Origin: a virus
UHGV virus genome: UHGV-0335272
Direction: 5' to 3' (one strand)
DNA length: 51,506 nt
Shown: in pieces, positions 1,076 to 43,507 of the stretch
Layout: the number at the start of each line of letters is the position of its first letter
Position numbering within the stretch: position 1 is the stretch's first letter
Program-made: the position numbers and the translations under genes
The notes under the pieces: model-generated
Databases searched by the model: none
What the model saw: the letters and a program-made list of their open reading frames with translations, nothing else
What the model was told of the DNA's origin: nothing

Positions 1076-2171
1076 CGGCTACCCCCGACATGGTGATGTT
1101 GATGGAGGTACAGTTGGCCCACTCGTTTTCCGCCACCACAACCAGCGCCAGACCGGGCAGTTCAACCTGATATACCCCTTCAACGGACAGGACGGCGTTA
1201 ATCTGTCCGGGCACGATATCCAGCCCCAGCTTTGCCCGACGAGCAGCGACCCAGCGCTGAATAGCATTATTGGCGGCGTCTTTTATCGAATTGACGTCCT
1301 GACCACGATAAACCGTGATGCGGGCATCGATGACGTAGTCCACCTGCACAGGCGTTTTTGCATGAACGGTATCGGTGAGCGGGCGGACTTTCTCATCCGA
1401 ACAGAAGCTCTCGACCAGCGTGAGGATGCTATTGTCCGGCAGACCGGTGCTGAGCAGCGGATACAGCTCGACAGTGCCGGGGACAGGGGAAAGAACGGCG
1501 ACGTCGACAATGCTGGGATGTGCCCCCATGGCATGAAAACGGTATGCACCACGGCTTCCGGCGTTAGTGAAGGACTCAGGAGCAAGCCTGATGCGCTCAC
1601 GCAGCCGGTCATTATCTTCCTGCTCTGACCCGCCAGAACTGGCGGAGAGATTGGTGACCTGCAGGTCAACGTTGTCAATCTCATCGAGCAACTGGCTGAC
1701 CTGAGCAGGCTGCCAGCCGTTACCGGCATCACCGGGTTCGGTACAGGTCGCCGTGATATTGACAAATTGCAGGCCCGCCTTCAGCACCACGTCCGCATCG
1801 GTGGCGAAGATAACGCTGTCGGAGGCACTGACACGGGTGCCTGCCGGTATCACTACATCCATCGCCATCGGTTCGTCGACAGCGAACTGGAGAGGTGTCG
1901 ATGCAGGCTGCGCGGCAAGGCGGTACACGCCAACAAGCTCGCCGAGGTAGTCAATCATCGGCTCACGGGCAAAGGCGACCAGATTCTGCTTCGCCGCCTC
2001 CTGTACTGCCACCCTGACCAGCATTTCGCGATAAGCCCAGAGGTCAATCAGCAGACGTTCGGCCTGTGCCGGATACAGCGTTTTACCGGCATCCGCCTCA
2101 TACTTCGCAATCATTTCTGCCGTGATTTTGTCGGCATCGCGTTCAATAAAATCGGGTTCTGTCAGCGCCAT
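1068..2171 (-). CDS. Baseplate J-like protein (Mu gp47-like)
   Basis: 367-aa ORF, baseplate J-like by sequence character and synteny between gpW-like and gpI-like genes. Confidence 0.75.
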   Translation of the reverse strand: MALTEPDFIERDADKITAEMIAKYEADAGKTLYPAQAERLLIDLWAYREMLVRVAVQEAAKQNLVAFAREPMIDYLGELVGVYRLAAQPASTPLQFAVDEPMAMDVVIPAGTRVSASDSVIFATDADVVLKAGLQFVNITATCTEPGDAGNGWQPAQVSQLLDEIDNVDLQVTNLSASSGGSEQEDNDRLRERIRLAPESFTNAGSRGAYRFHAMGAHPSIVDVAVLSPVPGTVELYPLLSTGLPDNSILTLVESFCSDEKVRPLTDTVHAKTPVQVDYVIDARITVYRGQDVNSIKDAANNAIQRWVAARRAKLGLDIVPGQINAVLSVEGVYQVELPGLALVVVAENEWANCTSINITMSGVADG

Positions 2172-2564: not shown

Positions 2565-3161
2565 TCAGTGGGAGTGGTGATTGGAGTTTGCGCCATCAGA
2601 CAGCATGCTACCGGTGGCGTGGGCATTCCCTTCAATCTCGATATTGCCCTGAATGGTCGCGGTGGCACCTTCTCCGCCAGAGCCAGCCATGCCACCCTCG
2701 TAAGTGAGCTTACCCCTGACAAGCAGGTCCCCGGTTATTTCGGTCTGTGGCGCATCAATCGTGGCTTTCTGCGTTTTCACGAACACGTCAGCACTACACT
2801 CAATCACAAGATGCTCGATTCCACCCTTAATGGTGAGCGTATGGGTGCCCCGGTGGTAGCTGAACTCGGCCCCGTCGCTGAATGTTGTGCCGCGAACGCT
2901 CTTGTCGCTGAACGATGGTTTATCAACGTCGGAATAGACCGCGCCGAGGATCACGCCATCTTCGCCGTTTTCATCCAGCAGCACCTTGACCTGCTCCCCC
3001 ACATCAGGGAGCCAGTAATCTTTGTTGTTCTGGGTGTTGCGCTGCAGGACGTCCAGCCAGTTGGTGCGCATGTTGTCGCACTCGGGCAGCCGGACGCGGG
3101 CTTTCACGCCATCAGCATCAACGGCACTGACCGTACCGGTCTGCAGGGTTACGCCTGTCAT
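2565..3161 (-). CDS. Baseplate assembly/spike protein (gpV-like, Mu gp45-like)
   Basis: 198-aa ORF between hub and gpW-like genes. Confidence 0.7.
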   Translation of the reverse strand: MTGVTLQTGTVSAVDADGVKARVRLPECDNMRTNWLDVLQRNTQNNKDYWLPDVGEQVKVLLDENGEDGVILGAVYSDVDKPSFSDKSVRGTTFSDGAEFSYHRGTHTLTIKGGIEHLVIECSADVFVKTQKATIDAPQTEITGDLLVRGKLTYEGGMAGSGGEGATATIQGNIEIEGNAHATGSMLSDGANSNHHSH

Positions 3162-4327
3162 TTTTTCTTCTCCTTTATTACCGTGGATGTGCTGCCGTCT
3201 GGCTTGTAGACGGTGAGCGTCTGGGTCTTGCCGGTCTTATTGCCTTTCTTCGCCTTACCCCGCGTCACCGGCCCCCGCGCCACATCCAGCTCGGTCACGT
3301 AGCCGCTGCTGCGGTCAAGCGTATGGCGGGCAGTGGTTATCAGCCACGGCCCGGATAGCTGGCCAAAGCCTGACAGCTCAATTTTATTGCCTGCTGTTAG
3401 CTGGGATGCGCCCATCAGGGTCAGGGAACCGCTCTGCTGATATTCGTTGTGGCGGGCCAGTGCGGAATCAGCCTTAATGCGTGCGCTGTCCGGATCACTG
3501 ATGCGGCTGTTGACCTGAAGCCGGTCGGCGCTGGTGACCTTGCCGCCTTTGGTTTGCTTGCTGCTCTCGCTGGTCCCGCCGTCAGCCTCATACACAATCA
3601 GCTTTTTTGTGCTGCTCTTCTGGTGCTTGACCCTGGCGGATTTGTAGACCCGGTTGATGGTATCGCGAAGCGAGTAACGGGCCACGTCCTGCGGCTTCAG
3701 CTGACGCACCGGCTCCTGGCTGCGAAGCGTGGCCAGATGCGAAAATATCAGCTGGTCGCTGACAATCTTCACCGCATAGCCGTACTCGCTGGCGAGGCGG
3801 TGCAGAAAGGCCACGTCGGTCTCGGCGTACTGCGTCACCCGGTCAATTTTGATGACCTCGATGCTGCCGACCAGCTTCAGCTGATGCTTTTTGGCAATAC
3901 GCCCGGCGATGGCCGCTAGCGTTGTGCTCTCGAAGCCCCGGCTTGATTTCGTCCGTAGTGCGCTGTTGACCGAGGTGGCCACACCCCGGATGGATACAAC
4001 AGAGGCGGGCGAACTGACCTCTATCTCGTCGATAGAGAAGGTACCGCAGGACAGCAGTTTCTCGCCCTGGTAGCCCACCTTCAGTGTCAACGTGTCACCT
4101 TTACCCGGATACCATGCATCCAGCCAGCGACCATCGGTATCATCCAGCTCCACCTCGATGGTGTCGGACTCATTTTTGATGTTATCGCTGTACGTAATGC
4201 GGGTGACGTATGGGGTGATATCGCTGGTGATATTCTTTTTCAGGTACCACAGGGTGAACACCGGCGACAGCACGTCGCTGACGCCGGTCAGGGCAGACGA
4301 TACCTGCGAACTGCTTACCTCAGCCAT
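3158..4327 (-). CDS. Baseplate hub protein (P2 gpD / Mu P-like)
   Basis: 389-aa ORF with basic C-terminal tail, downstream of gpU/N-like gene. Confidence 0.75.
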   Translation of the reverse strand: MAEVSSSQVSSALTGVSDVLSPVFTLWYLKKNITSDITPYVTRITYSDNIKNESDTIEVELDDTDGRWLDAWYPGKGDTLTLKVGYQGEKLLSCGTFSIDEIEVSSPASVVSIRGVATSVNSALRTKSSRGFESTTLAAIAGRIAKKHQLKLVGSIEVIKIDRVTQYAETDVAFLHRLASEYGYAVKIVSDQLIFSHLATLRSQEPVRQLKPQDVARYSLRDTINRVYKSARVKHQKSSTKKLIVYEADGGTSESSKQTKGGKVTSADRLQVNSRISDPDSARIKADSALARHNEYQQSGSLTLMGASQLTAGNKIELSGFGQLSGPWLITTARHTLDRSSGYVTELDVARGPVTRGKAKKGNKTGKTQTLTVYKPDGSTSTVIKEKKK

Positions 4328-5411: not shown

Positions 5412-7876
5412 CAGCTGTACCTCCTGCGCTGTTGCTGAGCCAGCAGACGCTCCAGCATTTTTTCCAGCTCGTGCACGCTCATATTCAGCGCACCGGTCAG
5501 CCCGGCTGGCGCTGCTGTCTCTTTGCCATTCAGGTAAAACTGAGGATTAAAGTCGACCTGAATACCACCAGACATTCCGCCACCGGATGCAGCTGCACCA
5601 CGGCCTGAATATCCCACAGCCATGATTTCTGGCGACGGGATACGGGGTACATCCGGTGTCATTTCTTCAGCCAGCCGCTGCCCGGCCAGCGCCGCAAGCG
5701 GAGTGGTGCGCTGCAGGCCGATGGCTGCTCCCTGTGCGATGTTGTCACCAAAGCCCATAAACACCCGGCTCGGTGAGTGAATGCCCAGTTTTTCTTTAAA
5801 CCAGCCGCCGACGCTGTCTCCCATGTCGGTGACGGTGGTTTTGAGCGAGTCCCATTTGTTTTTGATGCCGTTTATCAGCCCGTCGATAAGATGGCCACCG
5901 AAGTCAGTGAACTTCGCTGGCAGATCAACGCCGAGATATTTCAGCGCAGCCGCAAAGGCTTTGTAGAGCAGACCAACCGGCGACCAGTTCATCAGCAGCT
6001 TACCAATCCCCACGATACCGCCGTTAAACGCCGTTTTAATGTCTGCCCAGCGCTGTTTAAACCAGCCGCTGACCGCTCCCCAGTTGCGGTAAATAAGGTA
6101 AGCAGCCACAGCAACAGCGGTGATGACCAGACCGATAGGGTTCATCATCAGCGCCCGGCCAATCCAGAGAACTGCCCGTCCGACGAGCATAATGCCGCGA
6201 ACAAGACTGCCACCAAGTACACGCCCCAGCGTACCGGCCCCTCTGGCGACAGCGCTGAAGCCGGTCACTAACCAGCGGAGTTTGCCGCCTTCACCCAGTG
6301 CAAGGGTCAGACGAAGCCAGTTAGCTCGAAGCCTGACAACACTTCCCCATACGCTGGTAAATGGTGAGATAAGGAGATTCAGCCCCAGCTTGAGACCGAT
6401 GGTGGCCATCTTAAAGGCCAGTAATGCACCTACAACCTTAATAGTGCCGCTGACGAGCTGCGGGTTTGCCGCTATCCATTTGCCAACGCTGTTCATTAAG
6501 GGGATGAACGTTTCCCCCAACTGGATCAAAGCCGGGCGTAATGATTCTCCGATGCTAATGGCCGAGTCGTTAAAACCAATCTGGGTACTGCGCCAGCGTC
6601 CTTCGAGTGTGTCATTCTGTTTTGCTGCATCCTTGTCCAGGGTAGACATCGCAGAGGGAGTGTTCATTTCCTGTTTATTAGACTGGTACTTATCCCAGCC
6701 CTGGCGCATCGCCAGCAGATGGTTGACAGTCTGAATATCGGTGAACACTTCCGCCAGTCCAAAGGATTCCATCAACTTCTGCTGGCCTTCCTGATCGCCT
6801 CTTGATCCTGCAGCTTTCCATTGTTGTACGAATGCCTTGCCTTTACCGTCGATAAACCGGTTGGCAATCATCAGAGAGGCTTCATACTGAGAGAGTCCCT
6901 GGGCTACATAATTTTGCATTGACCCCTGATAGTCCACTCCGGCTTTGGCATATTTCTGAATGGTATCTCCGCGCCCCATCGCCGCCAGCCAGTTAGACAT
7001 ATTGGTGACTGCTTCCTCTGCAGAGCCGCTGCCTTTACCCACTTCCAGACTGGCGACAATCTGGGTTATGGCGTCTTTACCGTAAATACCACGGGCCGCG
7101 AAAGCTTTGGCCATACCGGGCAACGCTTTCGCCATATCCTTCAGTTCAAATGAGCCGAGCTTGGCCCCAGTTGCCGCAATCCCAAAAGCCTGCTCCAGCT
7201 CCTTCGCATCGGTAATTTTAAGCGCATCGCTGAAGGCATAGGTCATTTTGGCGAGGTCTGTCATATCCGCTTTGGTGGCTGTGGCTGCTTTGCCCAGCAT
7301 TCCGGCAAACTTTGCTGCCTGTTCCGGGTTCATACCATCAGCAACCAGTTGACCAACACCACCCAACAGAGACTCCTGCAGCTGGTTAACCCTGAGCGAT
7401 GCCTGACGAATAGCAGTACCGATTGCCTGCTCCTGACGTGCATCCAGATCGCCGGTCACGCTGATATCGCGAAGCTGGGACTCAAACGAGGCATATTGTT
7501 TGATTGAGGCCATAACTGGTGACCCCAGCGTTCTGCCTATGGCATAGGTTTCTGCCCCCTGCCCATAGAGCGCCATGCGGTTAGCTTTCTGCGCATCACT
7601 GGTGGCAGATACCGCCGACAGACGACGCTGCTGGCGCTCAACCTGTTCCATTGTTCGACCAACCCGCAACAGAGCATTGTTCAGGTTCTGCATGGAAGAT
7701 GTACCGAGGTGACCATAGCGGGCAATTTTCTGAGTTAAATTATCTTGCCGCTCCTGCAGACGGCGTGATGTATCGCCAAGGGAGTCGAGGGCGCGTCGGG
7801 TACCGCTGACGGCAGAACGGAAGCTGCTTCCGACAATCCCGCCAATAATGACGCCAACTGAAAATTCACTGGCCAC
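5411..7876 (-). CDS. Tail tape measure protein
   Basis: 821-aa ORF, A/G/L-rich with predicted coiled coil and hydrophobic C-terminal segments, downstream of tail chaperone. Confidence 0.85.
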   Translation of the reverse strand: MASEFSVGVIIGGIVGSSFRSAVSGTRRALDSLGDTSRRLQERQDNLTQKIARYGHLGTSSMQNLNNALLRVGRTMEQVERQQRRLSAVSATSDAQKANRMALYGQGAETYAIGRTLGSPVMASIKQYASFESQLRDISVTGDLDARQEQAIGTAIRQASLRVNQLQESLLGGVGQLVADGMNPEQAAKFAGMLGKAATATKADMTDLAKMTYAFSDALKITDAKELEQAFGIAATGAKLGSFELKDMAKALPGMAKAFAARGIYGKDAITQIVASLEVGKGSGSAEEAVTNMSNWLAAMGRGDTIQKYAKAGVDYQGSMQNYVAQGLSQYEASLMIANRFIDGKGKAFVQQWKAAGSRGDQEGQQKLMESFGLAEVFTDIQTVNHLLAMRQGWDKYQSNKQEMNTPSAMSTLDKDAAKQNDTLEGRWRSTQIGFNDSAISIGESLRPALIQLGETFIPLMNSVGKWIAANPQLVSGTIKVVGALLAFKMATIGLKLGLNLLISPFTSVWGSVVRLRANWLRLTLALGEGGKLRWLVTGFSAVARGAGTLGRVLGGSLVRGIMLVGRAVLWIGRALMMNPIGLVITAVAVAAYLIYRNWGAVSGWFKQRWADIKTAFNGGIVGIGKLLMNWSPVGLLYKAFAAALKYLGVDLPAKFTDFGGHLIDGLINGIKNKWDSLKTTVTDMGDSVGGWFKEKLGIHSPSRVFMGFGDNIAQGAAIGLQRTTPLAALAGQRLAEEMTPDVPRIPSPEIMAVGYSGRGAAASGGGMSGGIQVDFNPQFYLNGKETAAPAGLTGALNMSVHELEKMLERLLAQQQRRRYS

Positions 7877-34970: not shown

Positions 34971-36434
34971 TTAACTATCGTTCAATGTGGGCTGCTGGCG
35001 ACCAAAAATAACCTCCATTCTGGCGCCGCCCAGCAGGCTTTCACTGGTTTCTATTTTCCCGTCGTACTGGTCGACAATCTCACGGGCGACGGCCAATCCT
35101 ACGCCCTGGCCAGGACGTAGCGTATCGGCGCGCTGACCGCGATCGAACACCACGTCACGCTTATTGCGCGGGATGCCCGGACCATCATCCTCAACGATAA
35201 TATGCAGTTCGGTTTCCGTCTGACGCGCAGACACTTCCACGAACTCCAGGCAGTATTTGCAGGCGTTATCCAGCAGGTTACCCATCACTTCCATGAAGTC
35301 ATTTTTTTCACCCACAAAGCTTATCTCTGGCGAGATATCGAGGCTGATGTTCACCCCTTTACGCTGATACACCTTGTTGAGGGCGGACGTGAGGTTATCC
35401 AGAAGCGGGGCTACCGGGTGCAGCTCGCGGCTCAGAAGCGCGCTGCCGGAACGCATGCTGGCGCGGTGCAGGTAATAGCCAATTTGCTGGGAAATACGGC
35501 TGATCTGCTCCAGCATCACCGGCTCGGCATCATCGACGCTCAGCTTCGAACTGCGCATTGAACGCAGGGTACTTTGCATGACGGCCAGCGGAGTTTTCAG
35601 GCTGTGGGTCAGGTCGGTAAGGGTGGTACGGTATTTATCGTAGCGTTCGCGTTCACTTTTAAGCAGGCGGTTGAGGTTACGCACCAGGCTGGTGAGCTCA
35701 CGGGTGGTTTCCGGGTTCAGCTTCTCGCGATGATGTTCTTCCAGCTCACGAACCTCTTTCGCCAGTGATTCAATGGGGCGCAAGCTCCACCACGCCGCCA
35801 CCCACAGCAGCGGGATCACCAGCAGGAGATTCGCAGCCAGAACGTAGATGAACCAGCTCCAGACCATATAAGAACGCTTCAGCTCGACCGGAATGGTGTC
35901 GATCACCACGATGGTCAGCTGCGGCATGTTCAGCGTCGCTGGATAGAGGTTAATCGCGACGGAGTGCGTCATCTCCGTCTCGGCGTTGTCGGCGCGGATC
36001 TCGTTCAGCTTTTGCTGCAGGGAGCGATCTTCATGGATCAGCGAGCTGGTGGTGTTGAGATCGGCTTCAATTTCGTGAAATCCGTTGGTTTTGAGCCATT
36101 CCGGACGAATGCTTTTGACCAGCCAGGGAATATCACGCTGCGCCCACAGTAATTTCCCCTTTTCGTTATAAATCAGGGCCAGCGTTGGACTCTGCTGGTT
36201 GAGGTTTTCCGGCATTTCGACGGTGATTTGGTTGTTTTCCCACTTCGCCAGGGTATAAAACAGATTGCTTTCGCCACGCAGCAGCCGAAAGGTGGTTTTA
36301 TCAAAGCTGACGCTGTAGCCCACCAGGGCGACCATGCCGTAGGAGAGCGACAGCACCAGCACGACGGCAGCCGTGGCCAGTAAGAAACGAACCCGCAGCG
36401 AGAGGGGCAGTATGTGGCGTAAAATCCCTCTCAT
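34971..36434 (-). CDS. phoQ: Sensor histidine kinase PhoQ
   Basis: 487 aa, strongly resembles E. coli PhoQ throughout. Confidence 0.95.
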
Positions 36435-38742: not shown

Positions 38743-38982
38743 TCACCTGCCGAGTCCAGGGAGGCACTGGAGGTGCCTGGCACCGGTCATTGCCGTTGCC
38801 ACATAACTACGGGGGCGGTTAACAACCTCGACCGTAATTTTTCTCCCTTGGATCTTGACGGTGTAAAACGTCTGTTTGTCGTTGCGGCCATGCTCGCCGT
38901 ATTTGTCGAGATGGCATTTTAGAGCGGCGGCACATGCAGGCCCGCCGATGCTGTCTCCCTTGCTTCGGTTAATCAGACGCAC
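38743..38982 (-). CDS. Hypothetical small protein
   Basis: 79-aa ORF in early-left operon. Confidence 0.4.
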   Translation of the reverse strand: MRLINRSKGDSIGGPACAAALKCHLDKYGEHGRNDKQTFYTVKIQGRKITVEVVNRPRSYVATAMTGARHLQCLPGLGR

Positions 38983-40873
38983 AGGAGCCTTCCTGATGGT
39001 TTATAACGCCGCGGGCAAGTCCGGCGGCCATAGCCGGTAATTCCTCATACTGGTTGCAAAAGGCCGGGTTGGAGCATAAGCCCTGCAGGGCAGCAATGGT
39101 CAGCTGTTGCAGGTAGGTAACAGGCGAAAGCGGCGCGTTTGTCACAGGTGCTGGATCCGGCTCGGTTTTATGCTTTGCAGTAACGGCTGGTGGATCGAGC
39201 ACGACAGATTTTGGTGGTGCCGGGCGGCGGTATTCAACGATCGCATCAAGGGCGATTTTCTGACGCACGCTGATATCGTCAGACCAGCTATCCAGCATGG
39301 TGGTTGCCACGTCGTGGATCTCCTCGTCGGAGAACTCAGGAGACAGGCAAAATTCTGTGGTGGTGATATCGGCCATTAGCAGTGGAATAACATCAGAAAC
39401 GAGCTGGCCGGTGCCTGCCACCACATCTTCTGCTTCTTCTTTCCCCATGATGTTGGTGCGTCCAGAAATAAGGTCATTAAGCGCATGCAAAATCGCAAAG
39501 TCGCGATTATTTGGTGCAGGTGGTACTTCCTGTTTTTCGACCTCATTTGAGGGGGAATTATTAATCAGTGCATCAACAGAGAAGACTCCGCCGCCCAGGT
39601 TCTCCACCCGTGGTTGGTCAATCGCTTGCTCTTCTGGTGCCGGGCTCTGAGTGAATGCCTCGTTGAGTTCATTGTTGAGTTGCGCAGCTTCGCCTGGGCA
39701 AACTGCTGGTGGCAGAGCTTCGCCCGGTACAGTCGATTCGGTTTCATCATTTTCTTTTTTCTCAACATTAGTGCGAGGTTTAGGGCGGCAGGCTATATCA
39801 ACCGTTTTCTGGTCAGGGTTCGCATGGTCACGTTCAACCAGCTCGCGATTAATGTATTCACGCAAGGCAACAGGATCCATCCAAATGTTCTCCGGGGCGG
39901 ATTTAATCAGGGCGATAATGGCCGCACGGGAATAATCCAGAATGCCTGGGGTGCTGCGCAGTTTTTTCCACCACGCTGTAAAACGGGTGTCCTGTTCTGC
40001 TTCGGCCATGGCTTTCGCTGGAATCATGTATTTATTCGGGATCCAGTAAATGTCGATCTCGTCGTACATACTCAGAATGGCAACAGCCACTTCGATACGC
40101 AGCGTAGAGAGGTTATGAACCAGATCCGGGCTGCGGTCTGTCTTGTTACCACCGCCCAGTGTGGAGCCGGTGTCTGTACGGTTTTCTTCTGAGTTAGTGC
40201 TGTCAGCCAGAGGTCGCTTATCAACCGGGGTATCGATCCATTTAGCGATCTGCTTTTTGATGTCCGGCCACTGTGCAGAGTCTTTTGTATTTTCTCGTAT
40301 CCATGCGAGCAGCTGCTCCTGCCGTTCCGGAGCCAGCGCCAGCGCGCGGGTCTCTTTCGCCAGTGCTTCTGCAAGCTCGCGGGCAAAGCTGGGTTCATCA
40401 TCATTCTTCAGATCGACGATCTGGCCGTACTGCGCTGTAGTGATTCCAGGGACCGGGCCGAACAGTGCCAGGCAAGCTGCACGGGATGCCACGTCGAGCT
40501 GCGCGACAGTTTTAATTTCTTCCAGTGCCTTGTTGTCGTCCCATTCCGTCTTTTCTTCAGATTCTGGCTGTGGTGCTGCAGCTGGTTCACCTGCATTCAC
40601 ATTCCAGATAGCAACGGTATCGAAAAATTCAGATGAGAAGACATCAAGCTCAGGGCACGGTAAACCTTCACGGTGTTCCCAGATCTTCACTTTGAAGAAA
40701 TCATCAATATGTTCCGGGTGTTCAGCTGCCAGCTTGCCGAAAATAACGGCTTCAGCGATGGCTTTTGTTGCCGCATTAACTGCTGTGGCAAGCGGTTTTA
40801 AATCGGGGTGTTTTTTCAATGCTTTATCTTTTGGGAAATAAGCACCACCAAAAACTTTTAATTCAACAGACAT
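38969..40873 (-). CDS. Large acidic protein of unknown function (early-left operon)
   Basis: 634 aa, no P-loop or recognisable catalytic motif by eye; Pro/Glu-rich linker segments. Confidence 0.6.
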   Translation of the reverse strand: MSVELKVFGGAYFPKDKALKKHPDLKPLATAVNAATKAIAEAVIFGKLAAEHPEHIDDFFKVKIWEHREGLPCPELDVFSSEFFDTVAIWNVNAGEPAAAPQPESEEKTEWDDNKALEEIKTVAQLDVASRAACLALFGPVPGITTAQYGQIVDLKNDDEPSFARELAEALAKETRALALAPERQEQLLAWIRENTKDSAQWPDIKKQIAKWIDTPVDKRPLADSTNSEENRTDTGSTLGGGNKTDRSPDLVHNLSTLRIEVAVAILSMYDEIDIYWIPNKYMIPAKAMAEAEQDTRFTAWWKKLRSTPGILDYSRAAIIALIKSAPENIWMDPVALREYINRELVERDHANPDQKTVDIACRPKPRTNVEKKENDETESTVPGEALPPAVCPGEAAQLNNELNEAFTQSPAPEEQAIDQPRVENLGGGVFSVDALINNSPSNEVEKQEVPPAPNNRDFAILHALNDLISGRTNIMGKEEAEDVVAGTGQLVSDVIPLLMADITTTEFCLSPEFSDEEIHDVATTMLDSWSDDISVRQKIALDAIVEYRRPAPPKSVVLDPPAVTAKHKTEPDPAPVTNAPLSPVTYLQQLTIAALQGLCSNPAFCNQYEELPAMAAGLARGVINHQEGSCASD

Positions 40874-41367: not shown

Positions 41368-41434
41368 TTTACAGTCCTTAATTTAAGGTGTGAAAATCCC
41401 AGCCAGTTAAGGCATCGGTTTTAGGTTGGTCGAA

Positions 41435-41620
41435 TTAAATAACTTTTAGATTATTGCGCCATTCCTGATAAGGCTGGCGATGCACAACAAAATTTCTGTA
41501 TTTCCGTAATACTTTCCAGGCGGCATGGCATCCCGCAACATCGCGAAGAAATACTGAAGTTACGAGTTTTCCTTGTGCCCAGGCAATTTGTTGTTCCGGT
41601 GTTAATTGTGTCTTATCCAT
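41435..41620 (-). CDS. Hypothetical small protein
   Basis: ORF trimmed to MDKTQLTPEQQIAWAQGK... with upstream GGAG. Confidence 0.4.
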   Translation of the reverse strand: MDKTQLTPEQQIAWAQGKLVTSVFLRDVAGCHAAWKVLRKYRNFVVHRQPYQEWRNNLKVI

Positions 41621-42271
41621 ATATGAACACTCCACTATAAAACCTGATTTAAAAAGGGCGGTGTATACGTGGACCACGGGAAACGCATATACCACCAAGA
41701 ACTAAACACAGCCTCATGTTGCGATTACCCACAACTGGAAGCGCACTCAATCAATTTTGACTTAACGACAAAGCTCAAATTGGTGAGGCGAGTGCGCTCT
41801 CAATTGTGGGCGATTCATCTGCCCTGGTCCGGCGGCGCCACCTCGCCAGAGCAGATGTAAAGGGCAGTTACGCTGCCATGCGGCTTATTGGTCTGTGCAG
41901 GTATTTCAAGTCCTGCATCGTGGGGTTTGCTCTCCGCCCCAGGTTCTCCCCGCTACGCTTTAGCGCGCAACCTGAGAAAACCGCCTTCAAGCCTTTGGCT
42001 TACGCCACATTCATGAAACTGCCTGGACGAACTCGGAAAAGCTCAGTGCTTCTTCACCTTCCGCCAGACTGTTGAAATATTCTTCGTATGCTTTTTCCAT
42101 CTCGAACCCCTGTTGCTGCTTTGCTCGGCTTATCACCCTTATCGCCGGGTAGGCGGAACGTTTACTGATTACTGCGTGTTTTGTTGGTCTAAGTTTATAA
42201 AAAAATAAACCAATATGTAAAGTTAATGATAAACAAAAAGGCGTGAAAAATTGGATGTGGTTGAATTTGGA

Positions 42272-42297
42272 GAAAAAAAAGACCGCAACAGGCGGTC
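42272..42297 (-). terminator. Intrinsic terminator downstream of repressor gene
   Basis: Minus-strand GACCGC-CTGTT-GCGGTC hairpin followed by TTTTTTTT, 10 nt after the repressor stop. Confidence 0.6.
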
Positions 42298-42307
42298 TTT
42301 AGGGGAG

Positions 42308-42703
42308 TTAGTCTATTTCGAGGTCTTTGAGCATCTGAAGGATTTCTTGTTTGCTCTTGCCTTTAAGCCTTGCCTTGAGCTCATTGTCTATGGAGTTAAC
42401 TTGGGCCCTGAGGTTTACCATGTGCTGCTCTTTTTCCCATTCAGCAAGGCTGTCGAAAAGGTCTAGAAGTTCTTCATGGCGCGCGTCAAATGGACGAGGG
42501 GATCTTATCTCTTCACCCATAGGTTCTTCATCAAGATAACCAGGAGCCATGCCGTAATCTCGTTCAATACGGCGCGCAGCTCTCTCGCCGAACGACGCTT
42601 TGCCGTTGATCAGCTGTGAAAGGTAGCTCTTCTCTTTCTCCGGCAGGGTTCTGCTGGAAAACCATGCCGCTAGGCGCTTACGCCTGATTTCTTTTGTGTC
42701 CAT
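42308..42703 (-). CDS. Prophage repressor (HTH, CI-like, no peptidase domain)
   Basis: 131 aa; HTH-like segment EKSYLSQLINGKASFGERAARRIERDYGM; divergent from cro-like gene. Confidence 0.65.
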   Translation of the reverse strand: MDTKEIRRKRLAAWFSSRTLPEKEKSYLSQLINGKASFGERAARRIERDYGMAPGYLDEEPMGEEIRSPRPFDARHEELLDLFDSLAEWEKEQHMVNLRAQVNSIDNELKARLKGKSKQEILQMLKDLEID

Positions 42704-42743
42704 GCAGTCATTTTGATTAGTAATTTCTAAACAAGCAAAAACT

Positions 42744-42772
42744 TGACATTAATGTTTAGTGGTTTATAAACT
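42744..42772 (+). promoter_or_regulatory. Candidate early rightward promoter with overlapping palindromes
   Basis: TTGACA then 15 to 17 bp then TATAAA/TAAACT; GTTTATAAAC palindrome over the -10; CTAAAC ... GTTTAG inverted repeat. Confidence 0.4.
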
Positions 42773-42797
42773 TGCAACTCAACACACAGGAGCAATT

Positions 42798-43055
42798 ATG
42801 CAACTCAATGACTTTTTGAAAGCCGGTGGACCAAAGATCCGCAAGGCGCTGGAGCAACACCTTGGGATATCGAAATCTTACCTCTCCCAACTTGCAACGG
42901 GGCGAGCAGCTATTTCGCCGAGTCGATGCATCGTTATCGAAACCTTTACCGATGGAAAGGTTTCTCGTTCTGACATGCGGCCAAGCGATTGGGCTGAAAT
43001 TTGGCCTGATTACAAGCCAAAAAATAACACAACAGCTCAGGAGGATACTGACTGA
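42798..43055 (+). CDS. Cro-like HTH regulator
   Basis: ORF trimmed to MQLNDFLKAGGPKIRKALEQHLGISKSYLSQLATGR... with GGAG RBS. Confidence 0.6.
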   Translation: MQLNDFLKAGGPKIRKALEQHLGISKSYLSQLATGRAAISPSRCIVIETFTDGKVSRSDMRPSDWAEIWPDYKPKNNTTAQEDTD

Positions 43056-43507
43056 TGGAAATCAAAAAACTGGCATGTGAGCTGGAGTCCTGGGCGCAGG
43101 AAAAGGGCTGGAAGACAGTCACGCAGCTGATAACCCCGCATCACTTTGGCGATCTGCTTCAGCCATTGGATAACGTGACGGACCCTGACGAGTACGCGCG
43201 GCGCTTGCACAACAACAAGCAGATTATTCAGCGTGCATTCCGCAACGATACACCTAACTACCTGAAACAGGCTGAAGCCCTGAGCTATGCCATCCGCACC
43301 GCCATTGATAACGAGCTAGAGCAGAAAGACTGCATGCTCTACCGGGCGGCAAGGGTTAACAAAGAGTGTATCGAAGCCACCAATGCAGTCTTCACTGGCA
43401 AACCGCAACCGGTAATCCGCCGCGAGACTCTGGAAGCAATCGACGCGCTGGCGCAGCTGGTCGGCGTCAAAGTGAAGCTGGTTTCGACTTGTTCAAACGT
43501 AGCCTAG
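43055..43507 (+). CDS. Hypothetical regulatory protein (CII/YdaT-like position)
   Basis: 150-aa ORF directly after cro-like gene. Confidence 0.35.
   Translation: MEIKKLACELESWAQEKGWKTVTQLITPHHFGDLLQPLDNVTDPDEYARRLHNNKQIIQRAFRNDTPNYLKQAEALSYAIRTAIDNELEQKDCMLYRAARVNKECIEATNAVFTGKPQPVIRRETLEAIDALAQLVGVKVKLVSTCSNVA

Follow-up and report, generated by a model that had tools for sequence, protein, structure and literature searches.

A conserved structured RNA element in the putative early-left leader of a Qin/dicBF-like prophage, probably carried as an exchangeable module by enterobacterial phages

What occupies the roughly 600 bp that separate the repressor gene from the first early-left gene in the viral DNA UHGV-0335272 (51,506 nt, hereafter the window)? 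Few phage-encoded regulatory RNAs are understood, yet one such small RNA, DicF of the dicBF operon, reshapes host cell division and metabolism. The interval under study, 41699-42307, has all its features on the minus strand, and a preliminary description had proposed that it holds a pL/oL-type control region, an RNA-based antitermination element or a small RNA. As stated there, no open reading frame (ORF) of 60 aa or more is present on the transcribed (minus) strand, where only ORFs of 33, 40 and 41 aa overlap the interval; the absence of a 60-aa ORF from one strand over 600 bp is, however, expected by chance often enough to be unremarkable alone. The interval stands out beyond chance by its folding energy, by a conserved block of ~200 nt and by base-pair covariation. 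The folding energy of the minus strand is -188.3 kcal/mol, compared to -160.0 +/- 6.2 kcal/mol for shuffled sequences (z = -4.5; 0 of 100 shuffles as low), while the same comparison gives z = -2.7 for the plus strand.

We compared the window with phage and E. coli collections by blastn, and only positions 41793-42013 were found to be conserved elsewhere: three E. coli prophages are 90% identical there, and the Citrobacter phage phiNP is 85% identical. In these four genomes, the block lies within an unannotated gap of ~1 kb extending from the repressor to the first early-left gene. The comparison with related prophages that the preliminary description had suggested brought out a sharply bounded noncoding block of ~200 nt conserved in otherwise unrelated phages. 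This block, a structured RNA that we call element C, spans 41811..42007. Pattern scans recovered it from 69 IMG/VR viral contigs, six species-representative genomes (including Atlantibacter, Enterobacter, Buttiauxella, Leclercia and Phytobacter) and 19 metagenome contigs, giving ~100 loci overall. Its edges are sharp, from UGGCG(A/U)AAGCC to UG(A/G)AUCG, and its length is 197-208 nt. At 78 mapped loci and at the divergent metagenome locus L084 (L numbers denote the loci compared), element C is located 3' of the repressor gene, co-oriented with it and 5' of the early-left genes. The adjacent repressor is either of LexA/CI type (~210-250 aa) or of a small type (131-163 aa). Each locus has a single copy, whose orientation relative to pL is constant.

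A search with the 4227 models of Rfam 15 returned 0 window matches at the gathering threshold, and at E <= 10 only chance-level matches, including the isrK terminator; on 25 related loci, the gathering threshold gave only tRNA matches. Covariance-model searching, also advised in the preliminary description, was therefore fruitless with Rfam, whereas our own covariance model (R1) detects element C at 41809-42015(-) with 242 bits. The literature searches that could be run found no described equivalent. Judged from these searches, element C is an undescribed RNA: its platform, a dicBF leader with an RNase III-processed small RNA, is known, and its content is new.

The structure of element C, derived with RNAalifold and manual inspection, has seven helices and a pseudoknot, or 10 helical segments including the pseudoknot. 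From the 5' end, it comprises the GNRA hairpin H1 (GAAA or GUAA; 42006-41997), the nested helix pair H3/H3b (41976-41938), H4 (41940-41922), the variable hairpin H5 (41917-41896), the 5-bp hairpin H6 (GGCAG-CGUAA-CUGCC; 41877-41863) and the long 3' hairpin H7 (41857-41816), together with a long-range GGC/GCC helix. One of the hairpins is formed by GGGG/CCCC around an 11-nt loop. The pseudoknot, of 3 bp, joins CUU in the 5' linker (~41990-41988) with AAG of the H3b loop. Loop and junction sequences are strongly conserved; the core is near-invariant, and H5 and H7 are peripheral and variable.

Base-pair covariation agrees with this model. A MAFFT alignment of 58 distinct sequences gives 14 pairs altered on both sides, with 98.6% of cells pairing. 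A MAFFT alignment that included L084 shifted this sequence by one column and was replaced by a model-based one, in which 67 distinct sequences, including L084, were re-aligned with R1. Here, 98.7% of cells pair, compared to 33-47% when the partners are slid by 1-3 columns, and both sides have changed in 20 of 52 pairs, against 9.3 +/- 1.3 in shuffles, none of 500 having as many. Within the pseudoknot, compensatory change is seen at two of the three pairs (five changes of C-G to G-C and one of U-A to G-C); given that R1 was built without the pseudoknot, this covariation is not biased by the model. Moreover, L084 alone refolds to the same helices. The strand can be told from 218 G-U cells among the 58 sequences: 98.6% of cells pair when the transcribed strand is read and 91.9% when its complement is read, where the G-U cells weaken pairing, indicating an RNA on the strand transcribed from pL. 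A coding signature was sought on both strands of element C and none was found. Overall, element C is very probably a genuine functional RNA structure of the minus strand. A resemblance to the RNase P M1 RNA (shared GAGAGCAAACC..CGAUG) was attributed to chance, its score being matched by 0, 7, 27 and 18 of 300 shuffles for four variants; it is lost in the L041 group.

Is this RNA part of the core machinery of the operon, or cargo? The sole DNA shared by the window phage and phiNP is element C (41811-42007 versus 35943-36139 of phiNP, 84.8% identity), and no partner protein specifically common to the two was found. Repressors of two types, and two unrelated sets of early-left genes, accompany element C at its various loci. 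We also examined eight contexts of an identical 131-aa repressor, four of which contain element C together with ydfB, the small gene that precedes it in the window. The strain of assembly GCA_003940765.1 has a leader identical to that of the window. Two others, L105 and L108, share with the window the promoter, the 5' leader hairpin, the seed motif and terminator, and the downstream genes for a 61-aa, a 90-aa and a YdfE-like protein; in both, small protein genes replace ydfB and element C, and a search with R1 found no copy of the element. L106 and L107 have a different leader RNA (module A, described below) in the slot of element C. The contents thus differ between the 5' leader and the seed-terminator, so that the slot is variable and element C is one alternative filling. 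Since the same terminator and genes occur without it in L105 and L108, a requirement of element C for read-through is weakened. These comparisons suggest that element C is probably exchangeable cargo (a "moron" module) and not core regulatory machinery or an obligatory antiterminator.

The ydfB/element C slot behaves as an accessory-gene hotspot. Small convergent or overlapping ORF pairs are found there in L105 (3587-4237; 117/106 aa), L106 (3661-4087; 64/84 aa) and L108 (3616-4123; 98/77 aa), and the slot-replacing small proteins of L105-L108 gave no Pfam or PADLOC match.

The surroundings of element C have the organization of an early control region. The pL/oL proposed in the preliminary description lies at 42191..42224, which is a 34-nt inverted copy (76% complementary) of pR/oR at 42740-42773, with matching -35/-10 hexamers. 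The promoter-like site consists of TTTACA (-35, 42221-42216) and TAAACT (-10, 42197-42192) with a spacing of 18 and agrees with a sigma-70-like promoter at 9 of 12 positions, while pR/oR, located before the cro-like gene, has TTGACA-18-TAAACT. This inverted arrangement is the layout expected of pL/oL and pR/oR under one shared repressor. The promoter points leftward, away from the repressor gene and ~50 nt beyond its terminator; transcription is predicted to start near 42185, and the repressor would bind at oL.

The repressor gene, taken from the ORF list, spans 42308..42703 and encodes a DicA-like protein of 131 aa, whose match to the NCBIfam DicA C-terminus is weak (E 1.4e-5; 24.9 bits against a curated cut-off of 101). 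The identical protein was listed in 737 collection blocks. Its divergent neighbour is a YdaS/HTH_3 cro-like gene (YdaS_toxin, 43.7 bits, above the cut-off of 30), and other neighbours are recorded in public assemblies as YdaT and YdfE_N/YdfE_C. Judged from these sequence matches, the immunity genes appear to be of the Qin/Rac type. In the same assemblies, YdfE_N/YdfE_C are assigned to the 634-aa early-left protein (38969-40873(-)) and YdaT_toxin to the 150-aa protein encoded after cro (43055-43507(+)); neither assignment was reproduced with our local copy of Pfam. According to NCBIfam, the 634-aa protein shares a segment with RecE/exonuclease VIII. The strong terminator reported 3' of the repressor gene was recovered by our scanner. 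It occupies 42270..42300, begins 8 nt past the stop of ORF 42703..42308, and consists of a 9-bp stem with 5 G-C pairs (42300..42278(-)) followed by the eight-T U-run TTTTTTTT.

Downstream of pL, a short hairpin at 42127..42156 forms a conserved 5'-leader segment, CCGCCUACCCGGCGAUAAGGGUGAUAAGCC, which is almost invariant across 25 leaders with differing promoters and is retained in prophages bearing other cargo. It is similar to GUUCCGCUCCCCCGGCGUUAAGGGG, located 5' of ydfA in the Qin-like phage vB_EcoM-606R7 (L003). The next feature is the 29-aa ORF about which the preliminary description had been doubtful, whose quoted peptide lies within a 41-aa ORF and starts from ATG 42100. This ORF (42011..42100; MEKAYEEYFNSLAEGEEALSFSEFVQAVS) aligns with the annotated YdfB of vB_EcoM-606R7 (...MEKAYEEYFEGLAEGEEALSFSEFKQALS...). 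Among 25 distinct leaders, its variable columns are distributed 6/7/14 over codon positions 1/2/3, the full ORF is kept in 22, and one Ala position uses all four GCN codons. Together with the homology, the codon bias, the intact copies and the GCN variants indicate that this ORF is a conserved gene, a ydfB homologue, and not noise. Its UGA stop and the 5' edge of element C overlap, and more than half of the element C loci are without ydfB.

On the 3' side, at most 2 nt after element C, a long hairpin of 83 nt with a ~21-bp stem begins (41728..41810; folding free energy -38.8 kcal/mol), which we regard as a putative RNase III site. Its 3' strand, GUGCGCUUCCAGUUGUGG, is identical at 17 of 18 positions to a hairpin 5' of DicF in L003, where DicF is genuine according to the Rfam model (73.4 bits). 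In published work, DicF is excised from the polycistronic dicBp transcript by two nucleases, RNase III yielding a species of 190 nt and RNase E one of 53 nt (PMC10448788). If 190 nt are counted upstream from the DicF terminator, the RNase III end would fall in the homologous hairpin strand. A hairpin of the same type lies directly 3' of element C at 45 of 78 loci, and RNase III-type hairpins are also found without element C.

A 16-nt motif, GCUGUGUUUAGUUCUU (41697..41712; consensus GCUGUGUGUAGUCUU in 31 distinct leaders), comes next as a putative small-RNA seed. Across these 31 leaders, it stands directly 5' of at least five differing terminator hairpins, and it is retained in L105 and L108, which are without element C. 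In the window it is followed by an intrinsic terminator, GGUGGUAUAUGCG, a 14-nt loop, CGUAUACACCGCC and CUUUUU (41652..41696; -16 to -17 kcal/mol), which straddles the left edge of the interval and was overlooked by a simple scanner. This terminator precedes the first early-left gene and is placed like that of DicF. Base-pairing small RNAs are usually built in this way, from a conserved single-stranded motif and a variable terminator, and here the two take the DicF position. The DicF model RF00039 gave no match in window positions 41400-42800 at E <= 10, with L003 as the positive control. Pairing of the seed-terminator RNA with the translation start of E. coli ftsZ was, by a crude method, no better than that of shuffled sequence. 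In spirit, the small-RNA candidate of the preliminary description holds, as the interval appears to contain both a covariation-supported structured RNA of ~200 nt and a separate seed-terminator module in the DicF position.

The first early-left gene (41438..41620, 61 aa) has GUGGAG 5' of its ATG at 41620. The 87-aa version given in the ORF list (41435-41698(-)) would start from a TTG inside the leader terminator, and NCBI assemblies call the 61-aa gene instead; this TTG is probably not the real start, ATG 41620 being likelier.

From this organization, we propose the following mechanism. Once the DicA-like repressor is removed, pL/oL would fire leftward and yield a transcript carrying, in order, the short 5' hairpin, the 29-aa ydfB, element C, the ~21-bp hairpin, the seed motif with its terminator and the first early-left gene. 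Element C would be made from pL only when the prophage is induced or the phage infects a cell. Its release from the leader is probably due to RNase III, which would cleave the neighbouring hairpin, and the freed element may act as a stable, folded non-coding RNA that binds a conserved component of the host or of a competing phage. Its invariant unpaired nucleotides, GNRA loop and pseudoknot suggest recognition via shape rather than simple base pairing. Transcription from pL, cleavage by RNase III, stability and action in trans are all inferred here. We rate as about even the chances of this proposal in full, in which the interval serves a Qin/dicBF-type prophage operon as its early-left control region and leader and the mechanism operates as stated. 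The interpretation given in the preliminary description is, as a whole, partly supported.

Several points weigh against this proposal. Most element C sequences were retrieved by exact patterns within the element, so that the apparent invariance there is inflated and partly built in; the covariance model was run on the pattern-matched loci. The family is shallow, with an effective sequence number of 1.02 in R1; many compensatory cells are therefore inherited within three or four clades and are not independent. As the 5' half is near-invariant, its helices are supported mainly by L084. The RNase III end was placed by our arithmetic from the 190-nt size and not from published coordinates. Moreover, no target or partner of element C was found. 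Finally, an intrinsic terminator lies between element C and the first early-left gene in ~50 of 66 distinct leaders (counted from a listing), an arrangement that suits a read-through function in cis equally well.

In a rival reading that we consider unlikely, element C acts in cis as an RNA for processive antitermination or against Rho, with a function like that of HK022 put or Bacillus EAR, and modifies the RNA polymerase transcribing it to pass the leader terminator and the Rho sites of a long untranslated leader. The element always lies in the pL leader, 5' of the early-left genes and, in those ~50 leaders, of a terminator such as that of the window (41696-41652). An N/nut system is absent (no boxA, no Arg-rich N-like protein), and unpaired nucleotides that hardly vary would be apt for contacting a conserved host machine, e.g., RNA polymerase. 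Against this, L105 and L108 keep the promoter, the leader hairpin, the terminator and the downstream genes with neither element C nor module A, and Qin-type leaders express dicB beyond the DicF terminator without element C (PMC10448788). At least 11 leaders have element C but no detectable terminator downstream, and L002-type leaders have a terminator-like hairpin 5' of it too. Similarity to put was found neither by nhmmer nor by blastn, and element C begins ~180 nt past the predicted start, after a translated ORF. The antitermination element of the preliminary description, taken as the principal explanation, is thus disfavoured by the unlikeness to put, the distance from the start and the absence from L105 and L108. 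Another rival, to which we give a small probability, makes element C a stability or processing scaffold in cis without a function of its own, whose fold blocks 3'-5' exonucleases or RNase E and thereby stabilises the ydfB message, or sets the folding of the RNase III site. Its very stable structure, set directly between the ydfB stop and the long hairpin, would fit such a role. However, ydfB is missing at more than half of the loci, RNase III-type hairpins exist without element C, and the conservation of loop and junction sequences far exceeds the needs of a roadblock.

It is improbable that element C is a catalytic or ligand-sensing RNA, i.e., a ribozyme that cleaves itself and thereby the leader, or a sensor resembling an orphan riboswitch. 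A multi-helix junction with a pseudoknot, a near-invariant core with variable peripheral hairpins (H5 and H7) and a GNRA tetraloop conserved as GAAA or GUAA would be in keeping with this idea, but no Rfam ribozyme or riboswitch matched and no conserved cleavage-site signature was recognised. Moreover, the sequence just 3' of element C varies by leader and the next gene is 190 to >900 nt away, leaving no consistent expression platform. Very improbable, finally, is that the block acts as DNA (a recombination or binding site), encodes an antisense protein or is a functionless selfish repeat. The sharp edges are typical of mosaic exchange, and the opposite strand contains an ORF of 89 aa (41806-42075(+)), open in 41 of 58 sequences. 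Its coding nature was rejected, as its variable columns are spread 26/27/20 by codon position, 17 of the 58 sequences have no open frame and frame-shifting indels occur within the alignment; the G-U pairs tie the structure to the transcribed strand, and a single copy per locus in one orientation relative to pL does not suit a DNA site or a selfish repeat.

Related leaders harbour further RNA modules. Module A, of ~70 nt (CAACAGCGAACAGGCAGGACGCCCACGAAGUAGCCGCC-CCAGGCGUAUGAAGAUGG-GGAUGAUUCGC), has a second stem that varies compensatorily between loci. It lies directly after the -10 of pL in L001 (phiNP), L013, L015, L029, L041, L047-L070, L106 and L107, and is also present in SfV, SfII, SfIV, ST64B, ZF40, mEp237, YeP1-3 and AH07. 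Overall, it was found right after the early-left promoter in 42 loci and 47 phage records, where it is unannotated; it was sought in the window and is absent. In position and size it corresponds to HK022 putL, and nhmmer links neither module A nor element C to put. Module B, of ~170 nt and closed by AGGUAUCUUCGGGAGGGG...CCCCGCCCGAAGAUACCU, can occupy either side of element C: it lies between module A and element C in L029, L041, L051, L055, L059 and L062, and after element C in L042. It has no match in Rfam.

More generally, the sister leaders are ORF-free arrays of differing structured modules over 0.5 to >1 kb. Such arrays are found 3' of element C in L001 (~2700-3300(-)), L013, L020, L029, L041, L050, L053, L057, L059 and others. 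Their modules are mostly closed by CACAAC..GAGAGCAYUG / CAGUGCUCUC..GUUGUGG stems, and several have T-arm-like GGUUCGAUUCC hairpins. The pL leader of L053 contains a tRNA-like element (1077-1203(-); Rfam tRNA, 43.9 bits) with a 64-nt insert at the anticodon-arm site and an acceptor stem made of the recurring GUGGUU/AACCAC leader motif. Terminator-like hairpins (CUGGC..GCCAGCUUUUUA(A)GGGCACAAC) lie 5' of element C in L002 (~2850-2900(-)) and directly after it in L012 (~6020-6080(-)), indicating several potential stop points per leader. As far as their sequence goes, these arrays look like a multi-RNA precursor, and the records examined carry no annotation of them.

A broader view, which we put forward tentatively and hold to be somewhat less than evenly likely, is that element C is the founder of a new class of mobile pseudoknotted phage RNAs, the "RNA cargo" of enterobacterial early-left leaders. 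It would be exchangeable alongside tRNA-like elements, a two-stem RNA in the put position and the seed-terminator small RNA; the leaders would be multi-RNA precursors cut by RNase III, and element C would act in trans on a conserved host machine or a defence system in the first minutes of induction.

The platform that carries DicF thus bears, in many enterobacterial prophages, a much larger and well-folded RNA that has no known relatives and moves as a unit between unrelated phages. Such mobility is the behaviour expected of an accessory function in host takeover or anti-defence. Element C is a defined and testable object, with coordinates, a pseudoknotted structure model, a covariance model, and natural prophages with and without it in identical immunity regions. 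It also points to a wider unannotated phenomenon, namely early-left leaders of 0.5 to >1 kb built of exchangeable structured RNA modules.

How does this locus compare with known systems? Like element C, ROOL, GOLLD and YrlA (bacterial Y-RNA-like) are structured non-coding RNAs of temperate phages, and YrlA has tRNA-like modules, as do the sister leaders of element C. Both ROOL and GOLLD are larger than element C, which gave no covariance-model match and has no Ro/Rsr or RtcB neighbours. The Bacillus eps-associated RNA (EAR) is likewise a larger pseudoknotted leader RNA, which acts on downstream terminators, and would be the nearest precedent if the antitermination rival were right; unlike element C, it belongs to a chromosomal operon of Firmicutes, and there is no Rfam match at element C. 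The lambda N-leader with nutL likewise lies to the left of pL and the repressor, and it too contains an RNase III hairpin. However, searches allowing one mismatch found no boxA on either flank of the immunity region, and the first genes have 2 R+K in their first 25 residues, which excludes an N/nut system in the window phage; H6 is boxB-like in shape only.

The putL and putR RNAs of HK022 are ~70 nt long and stand at the very start of the transcript (PMC9378689). They resemble element C in being cis-encoded structured RNAs in the early leader of a lambdoid-type phage without N, 5' of terminators. They differ from it in that put consists of two stem-loops at or near +1 of pL, whereas element C, of 197-208 nt, lies ~180 nt downstream after a translated ORF and, contrary to a put-like reading, is dispensable in prophages with the same terminator. 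Neither blastn, nhmmer nor R1 matched the window or element C to the HK022 immunity region (L079; put sequences read from the HK022 genome).

The closest counterpart is the dicBF leader of Qin (dicA, dicBp, ydfA-ydfB-ydfC-dicF-dicB; DicF, RF00039). In place of ydfC, the window has element C, which shares no sequence or structural similarity with DicF; at four times the length of DicF, the element comprises seven helices and a pseudoknot and is without a terminator of its own; the seed GCUGUGUUUAGUUCUU in the DicF position also differs from that of DicF. The rest of the organization is common to both: a putatively DicA-like repressor with its terminator, a leftward promoter, a ydfB homologue in the leader, a long hairpin near-identical on its 3' strand, a short RNA module ending at an intrinsic terminator before the next genes, and a YdfE-like gene downstream. 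[quoted passage not shown]

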